Position numbers and translations under genes: made by a program | Source: Candidatus Saccharimonas aalborgensis | GTDB lineage: Bacteria > Patescibacteriota > Saccharimonadia > Saccharimonadales > Saccharimonadaceae | DNA: 32,000 bases | NCBI RefSeq assembly: GCF_000392435.1 | Contig: NC_021219.1 | Coordinates: 210,001-242,000 of the forward strand | Reading direction: 5' to 3' | In this document: positions 5,693-11,705 of the stretch, in pieces | Layout of the letters: each line of letters opens with the position of its first letter | Numbering within the stretch: the stretch's first letter is position 1 | Notes under the pieces: model-generated | Database searches by the model: none | What the model was told of the DNA's origin: nothing | What the model saw: only the letters and a program-made list of their open reading frames with translations

Positions 5693-6268
5693 CTAGAACT
5701 TGACTTCAACGGGTTTCTCAACAGCTGCGCGATCCTCGACCTCAAAGAACTCGCGTTGCTTGAAACCAAGCATACCTGCAATCGTATTTGCCGGGAACAT
5801 CTGAATCTTAGTGTTGAGGCTGCTAACACCACCATTGTAGAAGCGTCGTGCTGCCTGTATCTTATCCTCGGTATCAACCAGCTCGTTTTGCAGTTGGAGG
5901 AAGTTTTCATTTGCCTTGAGCTGAGGATAGTTCTCTGCTACCGCAAAAAGGCTCTTGAGAGCACCCTCGAATTGATTTTCTGCTTGAGCAGTTGCTTTTG
6001 GCCCCTGAGAGCTGGCATTGACAACGTTTGCCCTGGCTTCGGTGACATTTTCAAATACTTGTTTCTCGTGCGCTGCGTAGCCTTTAACCGCCTCTACAAG
6101 ATTTGGAATAAGGTCGGTACGCCGCTTAAGCTGGACGGTGATATCGCTCCACGCTTCATCGACACGTACTTTGAGTTTGACAAGACCGTTGTACGTTGCC
6201 CAAACAAAGAGGACAAGCAAAACAACCACACCGCCCACGATGAGTAAGGTTACTGTTACTGGATCCAT
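5693..6268 (-). CDS. lemA: LemA family protein
   Basis: N-terminal TM helix followed by a LemA-type helical domain (YNGLV..L..RR.DLIPNLV..VKGYA.HE...F..V..AR). The gene ends in TAG (5693..5695). Confidence 0.9.
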   Translation of the reverse strand: MDPVTVTLLIVGGVVVLLVLFVWATYNGLVKLKVRVDEAWSDITVQLKRRTDLIPNLVEAVKGYAAHEKQVFENVTEARANVVNASSQGPKATAQAENQFEGALKSLFAVAENYPQLKANENFLQLQNELVDTEDKIQAARRFYNGGVSSLNTKIQMFPANTIAGMLGFKQREFFEVEDRAAVEKPVEVKF

Positions 6269-6308
6269 GAGTTCTTTTACCCTTTCTTTCTCTACTTTTA
6301 CTGTCTAC

Positions 6309-6317
6309 AGTATACCA
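6309..6317 (-). promoter_or_regulatory. putative extended -10 element (TGgTATACT) upstream of lemA-htpX
   Basis: The minus strand reads TGGTATACT about 40 nt upstream of the lemA ATG (6268), with an AAAGGG Shine-Dalgarno-like element (SD) between them. No clear -35. Confidence 0.35.
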
Positions 6318-6391
6318 CTCGCCGCGCTAAAAGAATAGCTCAACCTATCATGACATCCTAGCAGGACAAAGACTGTCTAGTATTTGTTGAA

Positions 6392-6769
6392 TTAATTACC
6401 CGACTCCGCGTCTAAAGCATGACGGTGTCTCACATACTCTTCGATCGTCTGGGCGTCAGAAAATACTAGATAATATTCCCGCCTGTATGCTTCTTGAACA
6501 CTAAGGGGTTCGTCACCCGTCAGGTCTCTTGTTGTGTCTTTTTTCGAATATAGTTGAGCAAACCTCACATAATCAAATGATTCCTTATTGGGGTTGGCTG
6601 CTATTGCCTCAGCGATCGCCTCTGCAATTGTTCGATCTTGCTCTGCAAGCGTAGCCGCCATAAGTGATTCGTGAGTAGGGCCAGGTACAAATCCATCGGG
6701 CACAAGGTTATTTGTGCTGTCATGCTTGGGTGGTGAAAATTCCGTACCGTTCATTTTACTTATCTCCAT
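6392..6769 (-). CDS. small acidic hypothetical protein (third gene of the kinase/Fic-HD cassette); real start may be ATG 6754
   Basis: 125-aa ORF starting 15 nt after the HD gene stop. The second ATG (6754, MNGTEF) is preceded by GGAGATAAGTAAA, a better SD. No recognisable motif. Confidence 0.6.
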   Translation of the reverse strand: MEISKMNGTEFSPPKHDSTNNLVPDGFVPGPTHESLMAATLAEQDRTIAEAIAEAIAANPNKESFDYVRFAQLYSKKDTTRDLTGDEPLSVQEAYRREYYLVFSDAQTIEEYVRHRHALDAESGN

Positions 6770-6784
6770 TTCTATTATAACGTA

Positions 6785-7378
6785 TCACTCTTTAATTTTA
6801 CTAGATATCTCTTGATCCAGCTTCGACCGTAACAGATTAGCAAATAAATGTACCGACGAGTTGAGTAGTGACGCTGCCTTATTATGTGTCAAGAACTCAC
6901 TGGAGCCAAGAACTGTCATTGTGCGTTCCATAATTGGCCTAAAAAAATCGTTTCCCCATTCGATACCAAGCTGGTGTAGATTATAAGCAACACTGGTCGT
7001 GTTATCGATTAGATCTCCATACTTAATAATTCGTACTTCCTCGGGCGCAGAGGCAATTTGCTGCATATATTTGTCAGTGTGATAATCATCCTCGTGGTTG
7101 GTCAGTAGTTCAATAAATGATAGTACACGTTCTCCATACTGATCGCGCAAAAGTTCGCGAGGAATATCCGTATCTTCGAGCAAATCGTGACCCAGCGCCG
7201 CCAGAGTGATATCCTCTAGTAACCCTTTATCCCTAACAGAGCCGGTGGCTGTAAGCGCATATTCAACAATATTTGCAACATTTTGACAATGTATCGTAAC
7301 GGGCACGTCACCCCTAAACTGCCCCTTATGCCACTGACTAACCGTATCTAGCATCTGTCTATGTTTATCGCTTATCAT
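6785..7378 (-). CDS. stand-alone RelA/SpoT-type HD hydrolase (HD_4; Mesh1/small alarmone hydrolase-like)
   Basis: WHKGQFR..PVTIHCQNVANIV..AALGHDLLEDT..YGERVLSFIELLTN..IIKYGDLIDN matches the SpoT hydrolase signature (H.GQ.R, P...H..VA, AALLHD..EDT, FG..V, IK.aD...N). The ATG overlaps the upstream gene's stop (ATGA, 7375..7378). Confidence 0.8.
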   Translation of the reverse strand: MISDKHRQMLDTVSQWHKGQFRGDVPVTIHCQNVANIVEYALTATGSVRDKGLLEDITLAALGHDLLEDTDIPRELLRDQYGERVLSFIELLTNHEDDYHTDKYMQQIASAPEEVRIIKYGDLIDNTTSVAYNLHQLGIEWGNDFFRPIMERTMTVLGSSEFLTHNKAASLLNSSVHLFANLLRSKLDQEISSKIKE

Positions 7379-9603
7379 ATGCCCCCATTATCAGTTTTTA
7401 CCATTGACTTATAGTACTGCAGGAAATCTTGCCAAGCCGCTCTATCCGCGATCTGATCAACTCTGACTATACTCCTTGGAGCGTGTTTATAATACTCATC
7501 ACGTCCACCCTTATAGCTCGGCAATGATAAACCGGCACGCATCAAGACAAAGGAGGAGATAGCTTTAGCTGTTTTACCACAGCCATCAGCAAAAAAGTGG
7601 TCAACAAGGTCTATATGGTACTCACAAAAAGCAGCAACCTCGACGGGGTCACTATCGGGGTTGGTTAGTTTTTGATGTAACTCCTCATAAAACTGTTCCA
7701 TGGCAGCAGGCAATTCGTCAAGTCTAGTGTATGGATATTTATCGGAGTCTTCGCCAGTTCTGATAAGAGAACCTTCCTTTACAATACCGTCATTAATCTG
7801 AGCAGCAATAGACTCAACTAATTGTCTAACTTTGCTGGCTGATGAAAAATCTGCGTCTCTTTGTTCAAAAGCCAATGATATCGCCTTATCAAAGTTTGCT
7901 TTAGCTCTTGCTGCGGCTTCATCACCATCGATGGATTCCATACTGGCTGCTTTTGTACTACTCGCCGATGTGTCGATTGTGCCGTTAGCGGTTCGGGAAG
8001 TAGCCAATAGATTATGATTAGCGTCAGCCAAATAACCCTTAAGCTCTTGAGCGGTACCCGCACCTGCCATTATGTCCACCGCTCGGCGTAACGTCTTGCC
8101 CTTAAACCCTCCAAGTCTAGCCGCAACCTTCGCGGCATGTTCACGGCCCTTCTCGCTATTATCGTAGGATGAATTACAGTGTTGCTGTATAAAGGCATCG
8201 TCAATTACCGTGTTACCCAGTACCTCCGCATCAGCTTCCGCTTGCTCAGGCGTACTAAATAATCTAGCGTAAAGTTCTTGTCGTTTCTGATCGACAACAA
8301 CTTTACCATCAATTAGAACAGCTACCACTACAGGTCTTCGCTCATCTGGGTCAAATGCCATAAGCATGTACCCATCAACTGCCGTATTGCTACCAGTCTC
8401 AACCTGCTTTATAAGCTCAGACCTATTTGCTCTAATACCGACAAAACCTTTGATTATTGCATCAAATGGCACATTAGGATCTTCGCCACCTTTTTCGCGC
8501 ATTAATACGCCCACCAGTGAGGATTCTAGCGGTACGTCGACATCAAGAATCCGTACATTACGTTCCGTCTCAGAAGCATTTGCTAAGATGTCCTCTATAT
8601 CTCCGGGGGTTTCGTTGCGCTTATCTAGTACTACTGACATATCAGGATCTGTTAATTGTCGCTCGATTCTTCGGCTTATCATCGATCCCTCATCGTGTAC
8701 TTGTGCGGCACTGATATCTGGGTCACCCTCTCTCAAGGCAAACTTATAGGAATCAGGGTTGATTGCACCCGAGGGTTCTCCCCTTCCGTCTAATATTCCA
8801 GCGAACATTTCGTGACCAGCGCTTAAAGCACGGGTTTTTCCAGATGCAGTATTACCACGCAGAGCATAGATTGTCGGCTTTGGATTTTTTTCTTTGAGCC
8901 TTTCGGAAAGTGCGTGAGCTTTTAAGATTGCTTCTTCGAAAACACTTTCGTGCAACTTGCGCCTTTCAGAATCCCAGCTTTCCGGATTATCAAGCAGGGA
9001 TTTCCTCTCCTGTTTGCTTAAACTATCTAGATTAGCTGATGTAAAGGATTCTATGGAAGAAGTGGTGGTTTCTTTGAGTCGTTTAATCTTAGCTTTGTAG
9101 ACCTCTCGCGCCGCGTGTTCAGGAGTTCTAAGCACCCCTTCAACACGATCAATTTCTTTTGCTATCGCTTCGGCAGTTTCGGGATCTTCTGCTGCTATCT
9201 CTACAGTTGCATCTACTAACTCTTGATCAAAACCATCTCTCTCTAATGTTTCTATGGGGTTACTCCTGCCCACTAAACCCCCGGCTACTGTCTGCTCAGC
9301 AGCTGCTCCAACTGCTTCCGTTATTCTTTCGCTGTCCCCCGGGCCCCTCATTTCATAAGCACCGGCATCGGCTATTGTACGCTCAGCGACATAGGTTAGC
9401 GCCTCACCAGTCTGTTGCTCAAGTTCGGGAGAAGTCAGAGGATTTACATGTTCTTTAATCCAAGATTTTGCACCATCAATCTTATCCCTAATTTTTTCCA
9501 TCAATGGTCGGCGACTTTCTGTTTCAGGGGATTGAAGTGGTACAACTGGAATATTTTCTGGGTTTCTATTTTGTATCACATACAAATTATACGAAAAGCT
9601 CAT
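7375..9603 (-). CDS. large fusion protein: acidic N-terminal region + zeta-toxin-like P-loop kinase + C-terminal Fic/Doc-like domain
   Basis: Residue numbers follow the 770-aa track ORF. Walker A is GNTASGKT (aa 278-285, nt 8833..8856). Zeta-like blocks follow: INPDSYKF, VHDEGSMISRRIERQL, SVVLDKRNETPGDI, VRILDVDVPLESSLVGVLMRE. The C-terminus has VAAFCEYHIDLVDHFFADGCGKTAKAISSFVLMRAGLSLP (nt 7564..7599 = HFFADGCGKTAK), compared with the Fic motif HxFx(D/E)GNGRxxR. Start chosen at ATG 9603 (M29), because the longer ORF would overlap the divergent gene that starts at 9654. Confidence 0.75.
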   Translation of the reverse strand: MSFSYNLYVIQNRNPENIPVVPLQSPETESRRPLMEKIRDKIDGAKSWIKEHVNPLTSPELEQQTGEALTYVAERTIADAGAYEMRGPGDSERITEAVGAAAEQTVAGGLVGRSNPIETLERDGFDQELVDATVEIAAEDPETAEAIAKEIDRVEGVLRTPEHAAREVYKAKIKRLKETTTSSIESFTSANLDSLSKQERKSLLDNPESWDSERRKLHESVFEEAILKAHALSERLKEKNPKPTIYALRGNTASGKTRALSAGHEMFAGILDGRGEPSGAINPDSYKFALREGDPDISAAQVHDEGSMISRRIERQLTDPDMSVVLDKRNETPGDIEDILANASETERNVRILDVDVPLESSLVGVLMREKGGEDPNVPFDAIIKGFVGIRANRSELIKQVETGSNTAVDGYMLMAFDPDERRPVVVAVLIDGKVVVDQKRQELYARLFSTPEQAEADAEVLGNTVIDDAFIQQHCNSSYDNSEKGREHAAKVAARLGGFKGKTLRRAVDIMAGAGTAQELKGYLADANHNLLATSRTANGTIDTSASSTKAASMESIDGDEAAARAKANFDKAISLAFEQRDADFSSASKVRQLVESIAAQINDGIVKEGSLIRTGEDSDKYPYTRLDELPAAMEQFYEELHQKLTNPDSDPVEVAAFCEYHIDLVDHFFADGCGKTAKAISSFVLMRAGLSLPSYKGGRDEYYKHAPRSIVRVDQIADRAAWQDFLQYYKSMVKTDNGGI

Positions 9604-9653
9604 GTTATTTACCACACCAGTGAATAAACAAGTAACGATGGTAGAATTAGTAT

Positions 9654-10694
9654 ATGAAACACTTCCAAACCCTTCCCAAACTCTCACCGGGCGACCAAGT
9701 TGGTATTATTTCACCGTCTGCGGGACTACCAGGACTCTTTCCATGGGTACAAGATTTGGGCCTAGAGCGCATGCGAGATATATTCGGTCTTATTCCTGTA
9801 GAATATCCCACCACACGTATGATGAATGCTTCGCTTGAGGACAGAGCGCGCGATATCATGGCCGCATTTGCCGACCCGAACAACAAAGCAGTGTTTGCTT
9901 CTATAGGCGGTAATGATCAGATAAAACTTATCAAGTACCTTGACCCACAGGTATTCAGAGATAATCCAAAGCCGTTTTTTGGCTATAGCGACAATACACA
10001 TTTGCACAATTTCTTGTGGAATTTGGGTATACCATCGTACTATGGCGGCGGTATTATGAATCAATTTGGTATGAATGTCCGAATGTTTGATATGACGATA
10101 GATTCTCTCAAGCACGCCCTATTTAACAAGGGCGAATTTCCTCTTGATATCGCAAATAACTATAATGATGAGGGCTTAGACTGGTCAGTAAAAAATAACT
10201 TGGCGTTGGAACGCAAACTTGAACCAAACGATGGCATATACTGGGATGGCACCACAAACGCTAAAGGTATTTTGTGGGGTGGCTGCGTAGAAAGCCTAGT
10301 GGCTCAAATGGCAACAGCAAAATATCTACCAAGTGATAAAGACATTGATGGCACAATCTTAGTATTGGAGACCTCGGAGAACATACCTCAACACTGGATT
10401 ATTGAATATCTACTAGTAGGACTAGGTGAGCGCGGCTGGCTGGATAAGTTCCAGGCTGTGTTAGTTGGAAGACCAAAGGCGTGGGAATTTAACAAACAGA
10501 TGACGCCGCAACAAAAAGCAGACTACCGAGATCAACAACGCAAAACGGTTGTAGGTACTATACGCCAATATAACGCACGTATTCCGATCGTCCAAAATAT
10601 TGACTTCGGACATACCGATCCCCAAACGGTATTACCCCTCGGCCAGAAAGCGCGAGTCATAGTAGATAAGCAAATAATATACTTGAGTTACTAA
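9654..10694 (+). CDS. S66-family LD-carboxypeptidase (LdcA/MccF-like)
   Basis: L.PGD.VGIISPS, IGGNDQIKLIKYLD, nucleophile motif GYSDNTHLH, C-terminal DFGHTDP. Confidence 0.85.
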   Translation: MKHFQTLPKLSPGDQVGIISPSAGLPGLFPWVQDLGLERMRDIFGLIPVEYPTTRMMNASLEDRARDIMAAFADPNNKAVFASIGGNDQIKLIKYLDPQVFRDNPKPFFGYSDNTHLHNFLWNLGIPSYYGGGIMNQFGMNVRMFDMTIDSLKHALFNKGEFPLDIANNYNDEGLDWSVKNNLALERKLEPNDGIYWDGTTNAKGILWGGCVESLVAQMATAKYLPSDKDIDGTILVLETSENIPQHWIIEYLLVGLGERGWLDKFQAVLVGRPKAWEFNKQMTPQQKADYRDQQRKTVVGTIRQYNARIPIVQNIDFGHTDPQTVLPLGQKARVIVDKQIIYLSY

Positions 10695-10744: not shown

Positions 10745-10830
10745 TGGTGCGCGGGGCGGGAATCGAACCCGCACGACTTTTGGTCAAGGGATTTTAAGTC
10801 CCTCGCGTCTACCTATTCCGCCACCCGCGC
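10745..10830 (-). tRNA. tRNA-Leu(UAA), class II with long variable arm, CCA encoded
   Basis: Hand fold: acceptor GCGCGGG/CCCGCGC, anticodon loop CUUAAAA, variable arm GAC-CAAA-GUC, T arm GCGGG-UUCGAUU-CCCGC, discriminator A, CCA. Confidence 0.9.
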
Positions 10831-10852
10831 TCAACTTTAGTATACTAGAAAT

Positions 10853-11443
10853 ATGAAGCAAATCCTCATAATTCATGGTGGTGAAAGTTACAATTCATAC
10901 AACGCCTATTTGACGAAGCTGCGATCAAAGCGTGTTGACTATGACCGCCTAAAGGTTCATCAGAAATGGAAACCATGGATCGCAAATCAAATAAAAGATG
11001 CCGACGTACTCCTTCCTGAGTTTCCCAATGCGTGGAATGCTGTCTACGATGAGTGGAAATTATATTTTGAGAAACTCATCCCCTTCTTCGGCAATGACGT
11101 TCAGTTAGTGGGGCATTCCCTCGGCGCTATGTTTTTGGCAAAATACCTTCATGAGGTTCCGCTCAAACAAAAAGTGAAGCGACTTATTTTGGTCGCACCG
11201 GTTTACGACAATGACTTTACGGGAGATAATGGTAGTTTTCTCGTTGGTGACGCACGTGGTCTCGATAAGAGTGCGAATGAAATCCACTTGTTTCATAGCA
11301 AAGATGACCCTCTCGTGCCATTTGCTGAACTAACAAAGTTTCACCGTGATTTGCCCGATGCCATAGTTCATACGTTTGAAAACCGTGGGCATTTCATCGA
11401 GGAGACATTTCCCGAGATGCTCGAACTCCTCAAAAAGAAATAA
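10853..11443 (+). CDS. YdeN/RBBP9-like serine hydrolase (alpha/beta fold)
   Basis: ~195 aa, starts ILIIHGG, nucleophile elbow VGHSLGA, late D (HSKDDPLVP) and H (NRGHF), as in this small esterase family. Confidence 0.8.
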   Translation: MKQILIIHGGESYNSYNAYLTKLRSKRVDYDRLKVHQKWKPWIANQIKDADVLLPEFPNAWNAVYDEWKLYFEKLIPFFGNDVQLVGHSLGAMFLAKYLHEVPLKQKVKRLILVAPVYDNDFTGDNGSFLVGDARGLDKSANEIHLFHSKDDPLVPFAELTKFHRDLPDAIVHTFENRGHFIEETFPEMLELLKKK

Positions 11444-11467
11444 CCTCGAGCCATCGAGATTATTTCA

Positions 11468-11541
11468 TGGAGGCACGTATGGGAGTTGCACCCATCTACG
11501 CGGTTTTGCAGACCGCTGCGTAACTGCTCCGCCAACGCGCC
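11468..11541 (-). tRNA. tRNA-Cys(GCA), CCA encoded, atypical D/T loops
   Basis: Hand fold: acceptor GGCGCGU/ACGUGCC (one G-U), anticodon loop CUGCAAA, discriminator U73 (a Cys identity element), T arm AUGGG-UGCAACU-CCCAU. Confidence 0.8.
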
Positions 11542-11591
11542 ACGTTTTTTAGTATAACAAATAGATTAGCTTTGGTCTCTCGGAATAATAA

Positions 11592-11612
11592 GAGATGCCT
11601 TGGAGGCATCTT
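11592..11612 (-). terminator. stem-loop between tRNA-Leu(GAG) and tRNA-Cys (possible terminator or processing hairpin)
   Basis: AGATGCCT-TGG-AGGCATCT forms an 8-9 bp stem with a 3-nt loop. On the minus strand it lies 6 nt after the tRNA-Leu 3' end and is followed by CTTATTATT. Confidence 0.3.
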
Positions 11613-11617
11613 ATTTG

Positions 11618-11705
11618 TGGTGCACTGAAGAAGACTTGAACTTCCACGATCGCAATGATCACTAGCCCCTCAAGCTAGCGCGTCTACCAATTCCGCCACC
11701 AGTGC
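11618..11705 (-). tRNA. tRNA-Leu(GAG), class II with long variable arm, CCA encoded
   Basis: Hand fold: acceptor GCACUGG/UCAGUGC (one G-U), anticodon loop UUGAGGG, T arm GGAAG-UUCAAGU-CUUCU, D loop with GG. Confidence 0.85.

Follow-up and report, generated by a model that had tools for sequence, protein, structure and literature searches.

The 32,000-nucleotide stretch of the Candidatus Saccharimonas aalborgensis genome analysed here (contig NC_021219.1, positions 210,001 to 242,000; hereafter the window) carries on its minus strand three co-directional genes that may form a composite toxin/antidote operon. Gene 1 (7375..9603, minus strand) encodes a protein of 742 amino acids (aa) when read from an ATG, within an open reading frame (ORF) that, in the ORF list, reaches a GTG at 9687. 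Three regions can be distinguished in its product, an acidic region without a family match (residues 1–184; 9052..9603, minus strand), an AvrRxo1/XopAJ-type P-loop kinase of the zeta superfamily (residues 185–512; 8068..9051, minus strand) and a Fic fold of a distinct subfamily (residues 513–742; 7378..8067, minus strand). Gene 2 (6785..7378, minus strand, 197 aa), which is 100% identical to L336_0211, encodes a predicted HD phosphohydrolase of the small alarmone hydrolase (SAH)/Mesh1 type, denoted type A below, and gene 3 (6392..6769, minus strand, 125 aa) encodes a candidate antitoxin/chaperone resembling Arc1 (AvrRxo1-ORF2). The stop codon of gene 1 and the start codon of gene 2 share an ATGA on the minus strand (7375..7378): gene 1 ends in ...GGC ATA TGA, with TGA at 7377–7375, and gene 2 starts one base earlier with ATG ATA AGC, its ATG lying at 7378–7376. 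Genes 2 and 3 are separated by 15 bases. An earlier description made from the letters alone, referred to here as the sequence-only reading, had proposed three co-directional genes and an ATGA overlap coupling the translation of genes 1 and 2; the ORF list confirmed the former, and the overlap could be read directly from the sequence.

Gene 1 falls into the 100%-identical cluster P0001, has full-length relatives in other Saccharibacteria at 57–62% identity, and is the protein AGL61921 of Triplett et al. 2016. Its middle domain matched Pfam Zeta_toxin at 9.8e-7, above the family cut-off, and the NCBIfam model for XopAJ/AvrRxo1, NF041405, with an E-value of 3.6e-73 over profile positions 3–321 of 324. 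The NF041405 score of 246.6 lies below the NCBI subfamily cut-off of 300, which makes the kinase a divergent AvrRxo1 member. AvrRxo1-ORF1 (PDB 4z8v) was matched at E 2.6e-43, and the aligned blocks comprised Walker A, NPD, QVHxE, DKR and DxDxPLExS. Walker A, GNTASGKT, occupies residues 250–257 (K256, T257) of the 742-aa protein, and the Asp of the NPD block, D284, corresponds to AvrRxo1 D193; both elements are invariant in 12 relatives. AvrRxo1 phosphorylates the adenosine 3'-OH of NAD or nicotinic acid adenine dinucleotide (NAAD), in the case of NAD yielding 3'-NADP (PMC5087710, PMC5491322), its toxicity requires D193 and T167 (PMC5491322), and it is neutralised by Arc1 (PMC4938570, PMC5087710, PMC5491322). 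Substrate-facing residues vary even between proven AvrRxo1 homologues (PMC4938570). We assign the middle domain of gene 1 as an AvrRxo1-type kinase, which by analogy may phosphorylate the 3'-OH of NAD/NAAD. The acidic region preceding it (34 D/E versus 22 K/R in residues 1–184) gave no Pfam or NCBIfam match and possibly has a role in delivery or regulation.

A single-sequence search with gene 3 against Pfam, NCBIfam, PADLOC and the PDB returned nothing meaningful, the best match being a globin at 0.07. In contrast to that search, a profile built from gene 3 and six clearly homologous small ORFs adjoining related kinases matched AvrRxo1-ORF2 (Arc1, PDB 4z8q_B) with an E-value of 1.3e-8, and on the strength of this match gene 3 is assigned as Arc1-like. 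The KESFD block and the YY pair are present in gene 3 and invariant in the family, although the Arc1 motif KExFD(x25-27)(Y/L)ExxYY is not followed to the letter: the spacer is 28 residues long, and the second block reads YRREYY, with the Glu shifted. Like the N-terminus of gene 1, the protein is acidic (22 D/E versus 12 K/R). The profile evidence identifies gene 3 as the putative cognate Arc1-type antitoxin/chaperone of the kinase.

For the C-terminal region of gene 1, a single-sequence Pfam search placed Fic at 0.0065, below the cut-off, whereas a family profile based on a 39-member alignment matched human FICD at 8.5e-6 and aligned the catalytic motifs of the two. An AlphaFold model of this module had high confidence (predicted local distance difference test (pLDDT) score 95.1, predicted template-modelling score 0.92), and Foldseek against the PDB gave 32 matches at E <= 1e-3, all of them Fic proteins, with template-modelling (TM) scores of up to 0.66. 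The catalytic motif, H669-F-F-A-D-G-C-G-K-T-A-K, departs from the canonical HxFx(D/E)GNGRxxR: the His, Phe, Asp and both Gly are kept, while Asn is replaced by Cys and both Arg by Lys. These replacements place the domain in a variant Fic subfamily, which on sequence grounds carries neither the canonical AMPylase motif nor that of Doc. H, F, A, D, G, C and K of the motif are invariant in the 39-member alignment; across the wider family the motif is HxFxDG[C/V]G[K/R], and the canonical Asn is absent from every sampled representative with a motif match.

Upstream of the catalytic motif, an element resembling the inhibitory helix of Fic proteins (alpha-inh), SRTANG, lies at residues 536–541, 129 residues before the catalytic His, which is the class II spacing found in FICD; it is followed by a conserved DTSAS loop. 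The position of the inhibitory Glu in (S/T)xxxE(G/N), E234 in FICD, is variable in the family and is a Glu in 1 of the 39 aligned sequences. By analogy with Glu-to-Gly mutants of Fic proteins, the Fic domain of gene 1 would be expected to be constitutively active. A PADLOC scan of the cassette gave a weak SoFic match alone (4.6e-5, over the Fic region) and nothing for genes 2 and 3; an assignment to a known anti-phage defence system was rejected, as PADLOC returned no system match beyond it.

The metal-binding and catalytic residues of gene 2 (H30, H64, D65, E68, D69, K119, D122 and N126) are invariant in its family, which in our alignment comprised 38 HD proteins at 26–63% identity. The single-sequence Pfam HD_4 score was 18, against a cut-off of 27.2. 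The family profile recovered Drosophila Mesh1 at 1.9e-14 and PaSAH at 6.7e-13, as well as human MESH1, and an AlphaFold model of the protein (pLDDT 95.2) superimposed on PaSAH (6yvc) with TM scores of 0.71/0.80, also matching RelH and MESH1, including the NADPH and 3'-phosphoadenosine 5'-phosphosulphate (PAPS) complexes of the latter. Profile and model alike indicate that gene 2 is an SAH/Mesh1-type HD enzyme with an intact predicted active site, and this site is under selection. Substrates of the SAH/Mesh1 family comprise (p)ppGpp, (p)ppApp, pyrophosphorylated tRNA, NADPH and CoA 3'-phosphate, and MESH1 removes ribose 2'/3'-phosphates, dephosphorylating NADPH and CoA 3'-phosphate. To our knowledge, the family has a single chemistry, in which a ribose hydroxyl is freed of a phosphate or pyrophosphate. 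SAHs act as antitoxins to toxSAS enzymes (PMC7229694), some of which pyrophosphorylate the CCA ends of tRNA.

The domain calls of the sequence-only reading are correct. Its zeta/PezT-type P-loop kinase was upheld and is sharpened by NF041405 and 4z8v to the AvrRxo1/XopAJ type; the C-terminal Fic/Doc-like domain was supported by the match of the family profile to FICD and by a structural search that returned Fic proteins throughout; and the intact-looking RelA/SpoT HD_4-type hydrolase was corroborated by the invariant residues, the profile matches to Mesh1 and PaSAH and the structural match. The residues that it named as K284 and H697 are the right ones, numbered in the 770-aa ORF that begins at the GTG; counted along the 742-aa protein, they become K256 and H669. 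Its description of gene 3 as lacking a recognisable family was overturned by the Arc1 match. The observation that no epsilon/PezA-type gene precedes the kinase is literally true, the upstream neighbour of gene 1 being a divergent LD-carboxypeptidase gene, but it is misleading, since an Arc1-type antitoxin lies downstream, as is usual for AvrRxo1-type kinases. The suggestion that the antidote is enzymatic rather than a binding antitoxin did not hold in that form either, because the system has an Arc1-like binding antitoxin in gene 3.

To survey the neighbourhood of the kinase, one genome per species was scanned with the kinase alignment, and home-made profiles for the kinase, Arc1, HD and Fic families (KIN, ARC, HD and FIC) were then applied. 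In the full-length relatives from other Saccharibacteria (L001, L002, L003/L004) the three genes are kept in entirely different flanks, and an identical 4-nt overlap recurs in L001 and L002. The order of the window, a fused kinase-Fic gene followed by HD and Arc1, was found in L001, L002, L003, L017 (Berkelbacteria) and L039, whereas in L018 (Parcubacteria SG8_24) the HD gene precedes the fusion and Arc1 follows it. When the kinase and Fic are separate genes, the order is kinase, Arc1, Fic and two successive HD genes in L014; kinase and Arc1 facing an oppositely oriented Fic-HD pair, with HD next to Arc1, in L019; and Fic, HD, kinase and Arc1 in L034 and L036, which stand for a large Saccharibacteria clade (P0027–P0063). 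Six loci without Fic (L005, L007, L010, L011, L012, L013) have kinase and Arc1 followed by an HD gene in tail-to-tail orientation, and L006, L015, L119 and L120 have kinase and Arc1 only. Altogether, of the 18 distinct kinase loci of the candidate-phyla/uncultured kind (16 of candidate-phyla type, and the two unassigned metagenome contigs L119 and L120), 14 have an SAH-like HD gene no more than two genes away from the kinase, while neither HD nor Fic was present at any of the 14 kinase loci of Myxococcota, Proteobacteria, Chlamydiia, Bdellovibrionota and others. The flanking genes differ at every locus. Linkage that persists while the flanks change and the genes are arranged in at least six orders is a classical signature of functional association; the conservation of the cassette across genomes that the sequence-only reading had proposed was thus borne out by the survey.

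The HD proteins of these loci form two clusters, whose mutual distance is about as large as the distance of either to PaSAH/Mesh1. Type A, the gene 2 type, is present wherever the Fic family occurs, whereas type B, which is nearer to canonical SAH motifs, is the HD that stands tail-to-tail with Arc1 in Fic-less loci and the second HD of L014. When metagenomes were scanned with the type-A HD alignment, 13 distinct loci among the best matches had a Fic-family gene ahead of HD, and in at least nine of these (L049–L054, L057, L060, L062) no kinase or Arc1 lay within 5 kb. Nothing but Fic and HD is shared between these Fic:HD-only loci, down to 23–30% identity, and their Fic motifs keep the Cys (e.g. 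HPFADGCGR, HPYADGCGK). A type-A HD with kinase but without Fic never occurred among the retrieved loci. Since Fic-HD pairs without kinase or Arc1 exist and kinase:Arc1 pairs without HD are common, the gene-2-type HD appears, from gene neighbourhoods, to be tied primarily to Fic and not to the kinase. Mirror-tree distance correlations point the same way as soft evidence (r of 0.84 for HD versus Fic and 0.62 for HD versus kinase), with all four parts co-varying.

Domain fusions add to this pattern. An exhaustive profile search recovered 586 representatives of this Fic type at 50% identity, 218 of them at E <= 1e-30, and fusions were counted in 138 newly sampled representatives. A zeta-type kinase is fused to 48 of the 138, in either order, and an HD domain to seven, both as HD-Fic and as Fic-HD; 54 exceed 900 aa, the largest having 6100 aa. 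Proteins of 1000–6100 aa are frequent carriers of this Fic type, which is a toxin-like architecture. In L040 (3732–4730) a 332-aa protein encoded directly after a kinase-Fic gene joins a type-A HD (residues 18–210) to an Arc1-like domain (residues 222–331), and in L044 a protein of >1654 aa ends in a canonical zeta kinase and Fic and is followed by an HD gene in the immunity position. A single chain of about 1770 aa in L061 (213–5549; same layout in P0225) consists of a long N-terminal region, a cyclic nucleotide monophosphate (cNMP)-binding domain, a zeta/AvrRxo1-type kinase, the Fic variant and HD, which may point to a writer/eraser enzyme under the control of a ligand.

NAD(P)-binding enzyme domains occur in two of the 138 representatives, P0220 (710 aa), a fusion of HD, Fic and a short-chain dehydrogenase/reductase (SDR) epimerase, and P0151 (1368 aa), a fusion of Fic, Zeta_toxin and a pyridine nucleotide-disulphide oxidoreductase. 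In L001, genes for NAD synthase and NadD-like proteins are located at a distance of 4 kb from the cassette, and in L003 Arc1 is followed by an SDR epimerase gene; such fusions and neighbours are anecdotal hints at a connection with pyridine nucleotides.

Further observations were made at individual loci. Beside Fic:HD pairs that lack an AvrRxo1-type kinase, a P-loop NTPase of 193–215 aa was seen (L050:2241-2888, L054:1106-1687, L057:2347-2928), 33–43% identical between loci and with Pfam matches at the level of Walker A only, which could be a non-homologous replacement of the kinase. A more distant type-A-like HD (P0070, L038:1-1209) has no kinase, Fic or Arc1 nearby and lies about 5 kb from a Gln_amidase toxin gene and an Imm35 immunity gene, in toxin-rich surroundings; in L045 and L059, both short contigs, type-A-like HD genes stand in tandem or near-tandem pairs without detectable Fic. 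Directly upstream of several Fic-less or fused kinases, though not in the window, lies a short helical ORF rich in charged residues (57 aa in L003:5801-5974 and L006:3824-3997; the C-terminus of a 161-aa protein in L005:1384-1869), the tails of which are alike (…KRIDQILADL, …KTQEIRKQL and …RKIDEIKKRL) and which might be an additional conserved part of the system. L010, L012 and L013 have closely related kinase:Arc1 modules and HD proteins (the latter about 90% alike by eye), and the metagenome-assembled genomes concerned are labelled Saccharibacteria, Pseudobdellovibrionaceae (a 3-kb contig) and Uhrbacteria, which suggests mis-binning or recent horizontal transfer. In Corallococcus and Myxococcus (L020, L022, L033), the AvrRxo1-type kinase forms the C-terminal domain of proteins of 1277–1510 aa that are followed by an Arc1-like ORF, a layout that is that of polymorphic toxins with immunity genes.

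In the window, the cassette is flanked on one side by genes for NAD-dependent DNA ligase (LigA), a membrane protein, HtpX and LemA and on the other by LD-carboxypeptidase (on the opposite strand), three tRNA genes, a serine hydrolase and a solute-binding protein, in agreement with the housekeeping surroundings described by the sequence-only reading. The tRNA genes (Leu-TAA, Cys-GCA and Leu-GAG) lie at 10745–11705, about 1–2 kb from the cassette. The GC content of the cassette, 0.43–0.46 compared with 0.47–0.50 in the flanks, shows a slight dip, and no integrase, transposase or phage genes were found near it; on these grounds, and with housekeeping genes as flanks, a mobile-element or phage context was rejected. 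A promoter and terminator scan of 6200–9800 gave counts not above those of shuffled sequence.

We put about even confidence in the reading that the locus is a composite toxin/antidote operon, a merger of two two-gene modules, in which the HD protein is the enzyme that erases a ribose-linked product of gene 1 and has Fic as its primary partner. One module would consist of the AvrRxo1-type kinase of gene 1 and gene 3 as its Arc1-type binding antitoxin; the other would pair the presumably constitutively active Fic domain of gene 1 with the translationally coupled HD hydrolase of gene 2. The hydrolase would protect the producer by removing a phosphate-containing group that the toxin places on a ribose hydroxyl, and the target would be an adenine (di)nucleotide or possibly the 3' end of tRNA. 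The proposal that the group is ribose-linked follows from the one bond type that SAH/Mesh1 enzymes are known to cleave, and the HD protein is placed on the antidote side by its fusion to Arc1 in L040, its immunity position after giant toxins in L044 and its translational coupling to gene 1. If gene 1 is toxic, as its domains would suggest, the toxin may act inside the producing cell or be delivered to an actinobacterial host. The sequence-only reading had already cast the HD enzyme as an enzymatic antidote, and this part remains plausible given the invariant residues, the L040 fusion, the L044 position and MESH1 chemistry; it had aimed the enzyme at the kinase, and the main partner of HD is Fic.

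Several points weigh against the composite operon. Some type-A HD genes have no Fic neighbour (L041, L043, L048, L038), and the counts behind the kinase-HD linkage are phylogenetically non-independent. Four kinase:Arc1 loci of the candidate-phyla/uncultured kind lack HD (L006, L015, L119, L120), which implies that self-protection against the kinase does not depend on HD. The single-chain kinase-Fic-HD proteins with a cNMP-binding domain (L061/P0225) and the HD-Fic-SDR epimerase P0220 are more easily reconciled with a regulated writer/eraser or a metabolic role than with a plain toxin/immunity pair. The Fic enzymes that we are aware of modify proteins, not ribose hydroxyls, and we know of no SAH-family enzyme that reverses a protein modification.

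Among the alternatives, the model of the sequence-only reading, in which HD hydrolyses 3'-NADP/3'-NAADP to NAD/NAAD beside or instead of binding by Arc1, has the most in its favour, although we consider it unlikely. The kinase belongs to the family that produces 3'-NADP, the closest characterised relatives of HD act on NADPH and CoA by removing 2'/3'-ribose phosphates, the structural matches include a MESH1-PAPS complex, and NAD(P)-binding enzymes appear among some fusions and neighbours. A kinase-HD link as such is plausible from gene arrangement, as in six kinase loci without Fic an independent type-B HD adjoins Arc1 tail-to-tail (type B also provides the second HD of L014) and about a third of the sampled Fic family is kinase-fused. 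Type A, however, accompanies Fic alone in at least nine loci and was never retrieved with the kinase minus Fic; in addition, the kinase already has its Arc1 here, and both the classical AvrRxo1:Arc1 modules and the four candidate-phyla/uncultured loci do without HD. The same kinase-Fic fusions in both orders, and the chain that adds HD and a cNMP-binding sensor domain, could instead point to a nucleotide signal, and the single-chain proteins argue that at least some members may be regulated writer/eraser enzymes and not simple toxin/immunity pairs. Applied to the locus as a whole, this would mean that the kinase and then Fic act on one nucleotide, 3'-phosphorylation being followed by a Doc-like phosphoryl or nucleotidyl transfer to give a 3'-pyrophosphorylated or 3'-extended adenine (di)nucleotide with a regulatory or abortive-infection-like function, from which the group would be taken off by HD, in the way that Rel/SpoT acts on (p)ppGpp. 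Hydrolysis of a 3'-pyrophosphate is the canonical SAH-family reaction, and in the Fic loop the phosphate-binding GNGR has changed. We nevertheless hold such a signal to be quite improbable: we know of no Fic enzyme with a nucleotide acceptor, some Fic:HD pairs lack a kinase altogether, Arc1 is already established as an antitoxin, and the proposal has domain logic as its basis.

That the HD protein neutralises Fic by binding only, as a type II antitoxin, or acts as a (p)ppGpp/(p)ppApp or NADPH phosphatase with a housekeeping role and just happens to share the operon, seems improbable as well. In its favour are the tight translational coupling, a typical trait of binding antitoxins, the occurrence of some type-A HD genes on their own and the abundance of ordinary SAHs, the more distant ones that we retrieved (L063–L118) having none of the partner genes. 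Against this, all metal-binding and catalytic residues are invariant in 38 members at 26–63% identity, the linkage survives many rearrangements and fusions in flanks that differ everywhere, and two different SAH subtypes have been recruited.

A broader conjecture, which we regard as rather improbable at present, is that kinase, Cys/Val-variant Fic and SAH-type HD form a widespread triad independent of RelA/SpoT. Its product, which HD as the dedicated eraser would remove again, would be either a modified tRNA 3' end or an adenine (di)nucleotide carrying a 3'-phosphate, 3'-pyrophosphate or 3'-nucleotidyl group, and Saccharibacteria and other candidate-phyla bacteria would use the triad against hosts or phages; if true, the triad would represent a new toxic or signalling nucleotide chemistry. 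We know of no dedicated degrading enzyme for 3'-NADP, and the physiological substrates of Mesh1-type hydrolases (ppGpp, NADPH, CoA) are still debated. The coupling of an SAH/Mesh1-like enzyme to AvrRxo1-type kinases and an unclassified Fic subfamily offers a direct and cheap handle on both questions. The locus also points to unstudied Fic chemistry, with an altered phosphate-binding loop, a lack of auto-inhibition and an eraser of the SAH family, and suggests how ultra-small, epibiotic Saccharibacteria may safely carry multi-domain toxins that target nucleotides. If HD is merely a bystander, the locus is a homologue of AvrRxo1:Arc1 that was catalogued in 2016.

Part of the cassette was indeed described then. 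Triplett et al. 2016 reported the 742-aa AvrRxo1-like protein AGL61921 of S. aalborgensis with its C-terminal Fic/Doc domain as a distant homologue (PMC4938570, section 8, Table 3), together with a 121-aa arc1-like ORF and another, unidentified ORF between the two (PMC4938570). The claim of the sequence-only reading that the three-gene combination is undescribed accordingly fails for the kinase-Fic-arc1 part (PMC4938570) and seems to stand for HD as a conserved partner; neither this SAH/Mesh1-type partner nor the Fic family with the Cys variant appears to have been described. In a literature search whose coverage was incomplete, so that absence is no proof, we found no work linking AvrRxo1 with an alarmone hydrolase or phosphohydrolase, or a Fic domain with an alarmone hydrolase, and none on zeta toxins in Saccharibacteria.

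Of the known systems, AvrRxo1:Arc1 of Xanthomonas oryzae pv. oryzicola and relatives, in which a type III effector also works as part of a zeta-like toxin-antitoxin pair, shares with the cassette a kinase that is homologous over the whole catalytic region, including Walker A and the Asp, and an Arc1-homologous small partner encoded downstream, co-directionally and in toxin-first order. The cassette differs in the extra 184-aa acidic N-terminus and the C-terminal Fic domain of gene 1, in a score below the subfamily cut-off and in the SAH-type HD gene between toxin and antitoxin; type III secretion, moreover, is not known for S. aalborgensis. Epsilon/zeta (PezAT) systems are set apart by their upstream epsilon/PezA antitoxin, which is absent here, the antitoxin being of Arc1 type and located downstream. 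The toxSAS:SAH pairs (FaRel, FaRel2; Jimmy et al. 2020, PMC7229694) likewise place an SAH-family HD beside a nucleotide-modifying toxin, with a presumed enzymatic reversal of a 3'-ribose modification. The toxin in the window is, however, a zeta-type kinase-Fic protein and not a RelA/SpoT synthetase, no RelA/SpoT homologue (RSH) synthetase domain of the kind that marks toxSAS toxins was found in gene 1 or its neighbours, and the HD proteins belong to the separate subfamilies A and B.

With Fic/Doc proteins regulated by alpha-inh (FicT:FicA, the class II proteins FICD and SoFic, and Doc:Phd), gene 1 shares the fold, the catalytic His, the pattern H-x-F-x-D-G-x-G-[K/R] and an S-x-x-x-x-G element at class II spacing. 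It is distinguished from them by Cys or Val in place of Asn, by Arg being mostly Lys, by the absence of the inhibitory Glu in 38 of 39 family members, by a partner that is an HD hydrolase rather than a FicA/Phd-type inhibitor and by frequent fusion to zeta kinases. MESH1/HDDC3 and the bacterial SAHs PaSAH and RelH, the best sequence and structure matches of gene 2, have its fold and catalytic residues, whereas the gene 2 family is only 17–24% identical to them and has blocks of its own (PYWHHC, LTNE and SVxY...LGxxW...FFxPI); genomic coupling to Fic/kinase toxins is specific to the gene 2 group. Tre1:Tri1 and DarT:DarG, which act through ADP-ribosylation of protein or DNA and its removal by macrodomain or DraG-type erasers, have no homology to the proteins of the cassette; the likeness is conceptual, in that a toxin that writes a modification is paired with an antidote that erases it, sometimes combined with binding.

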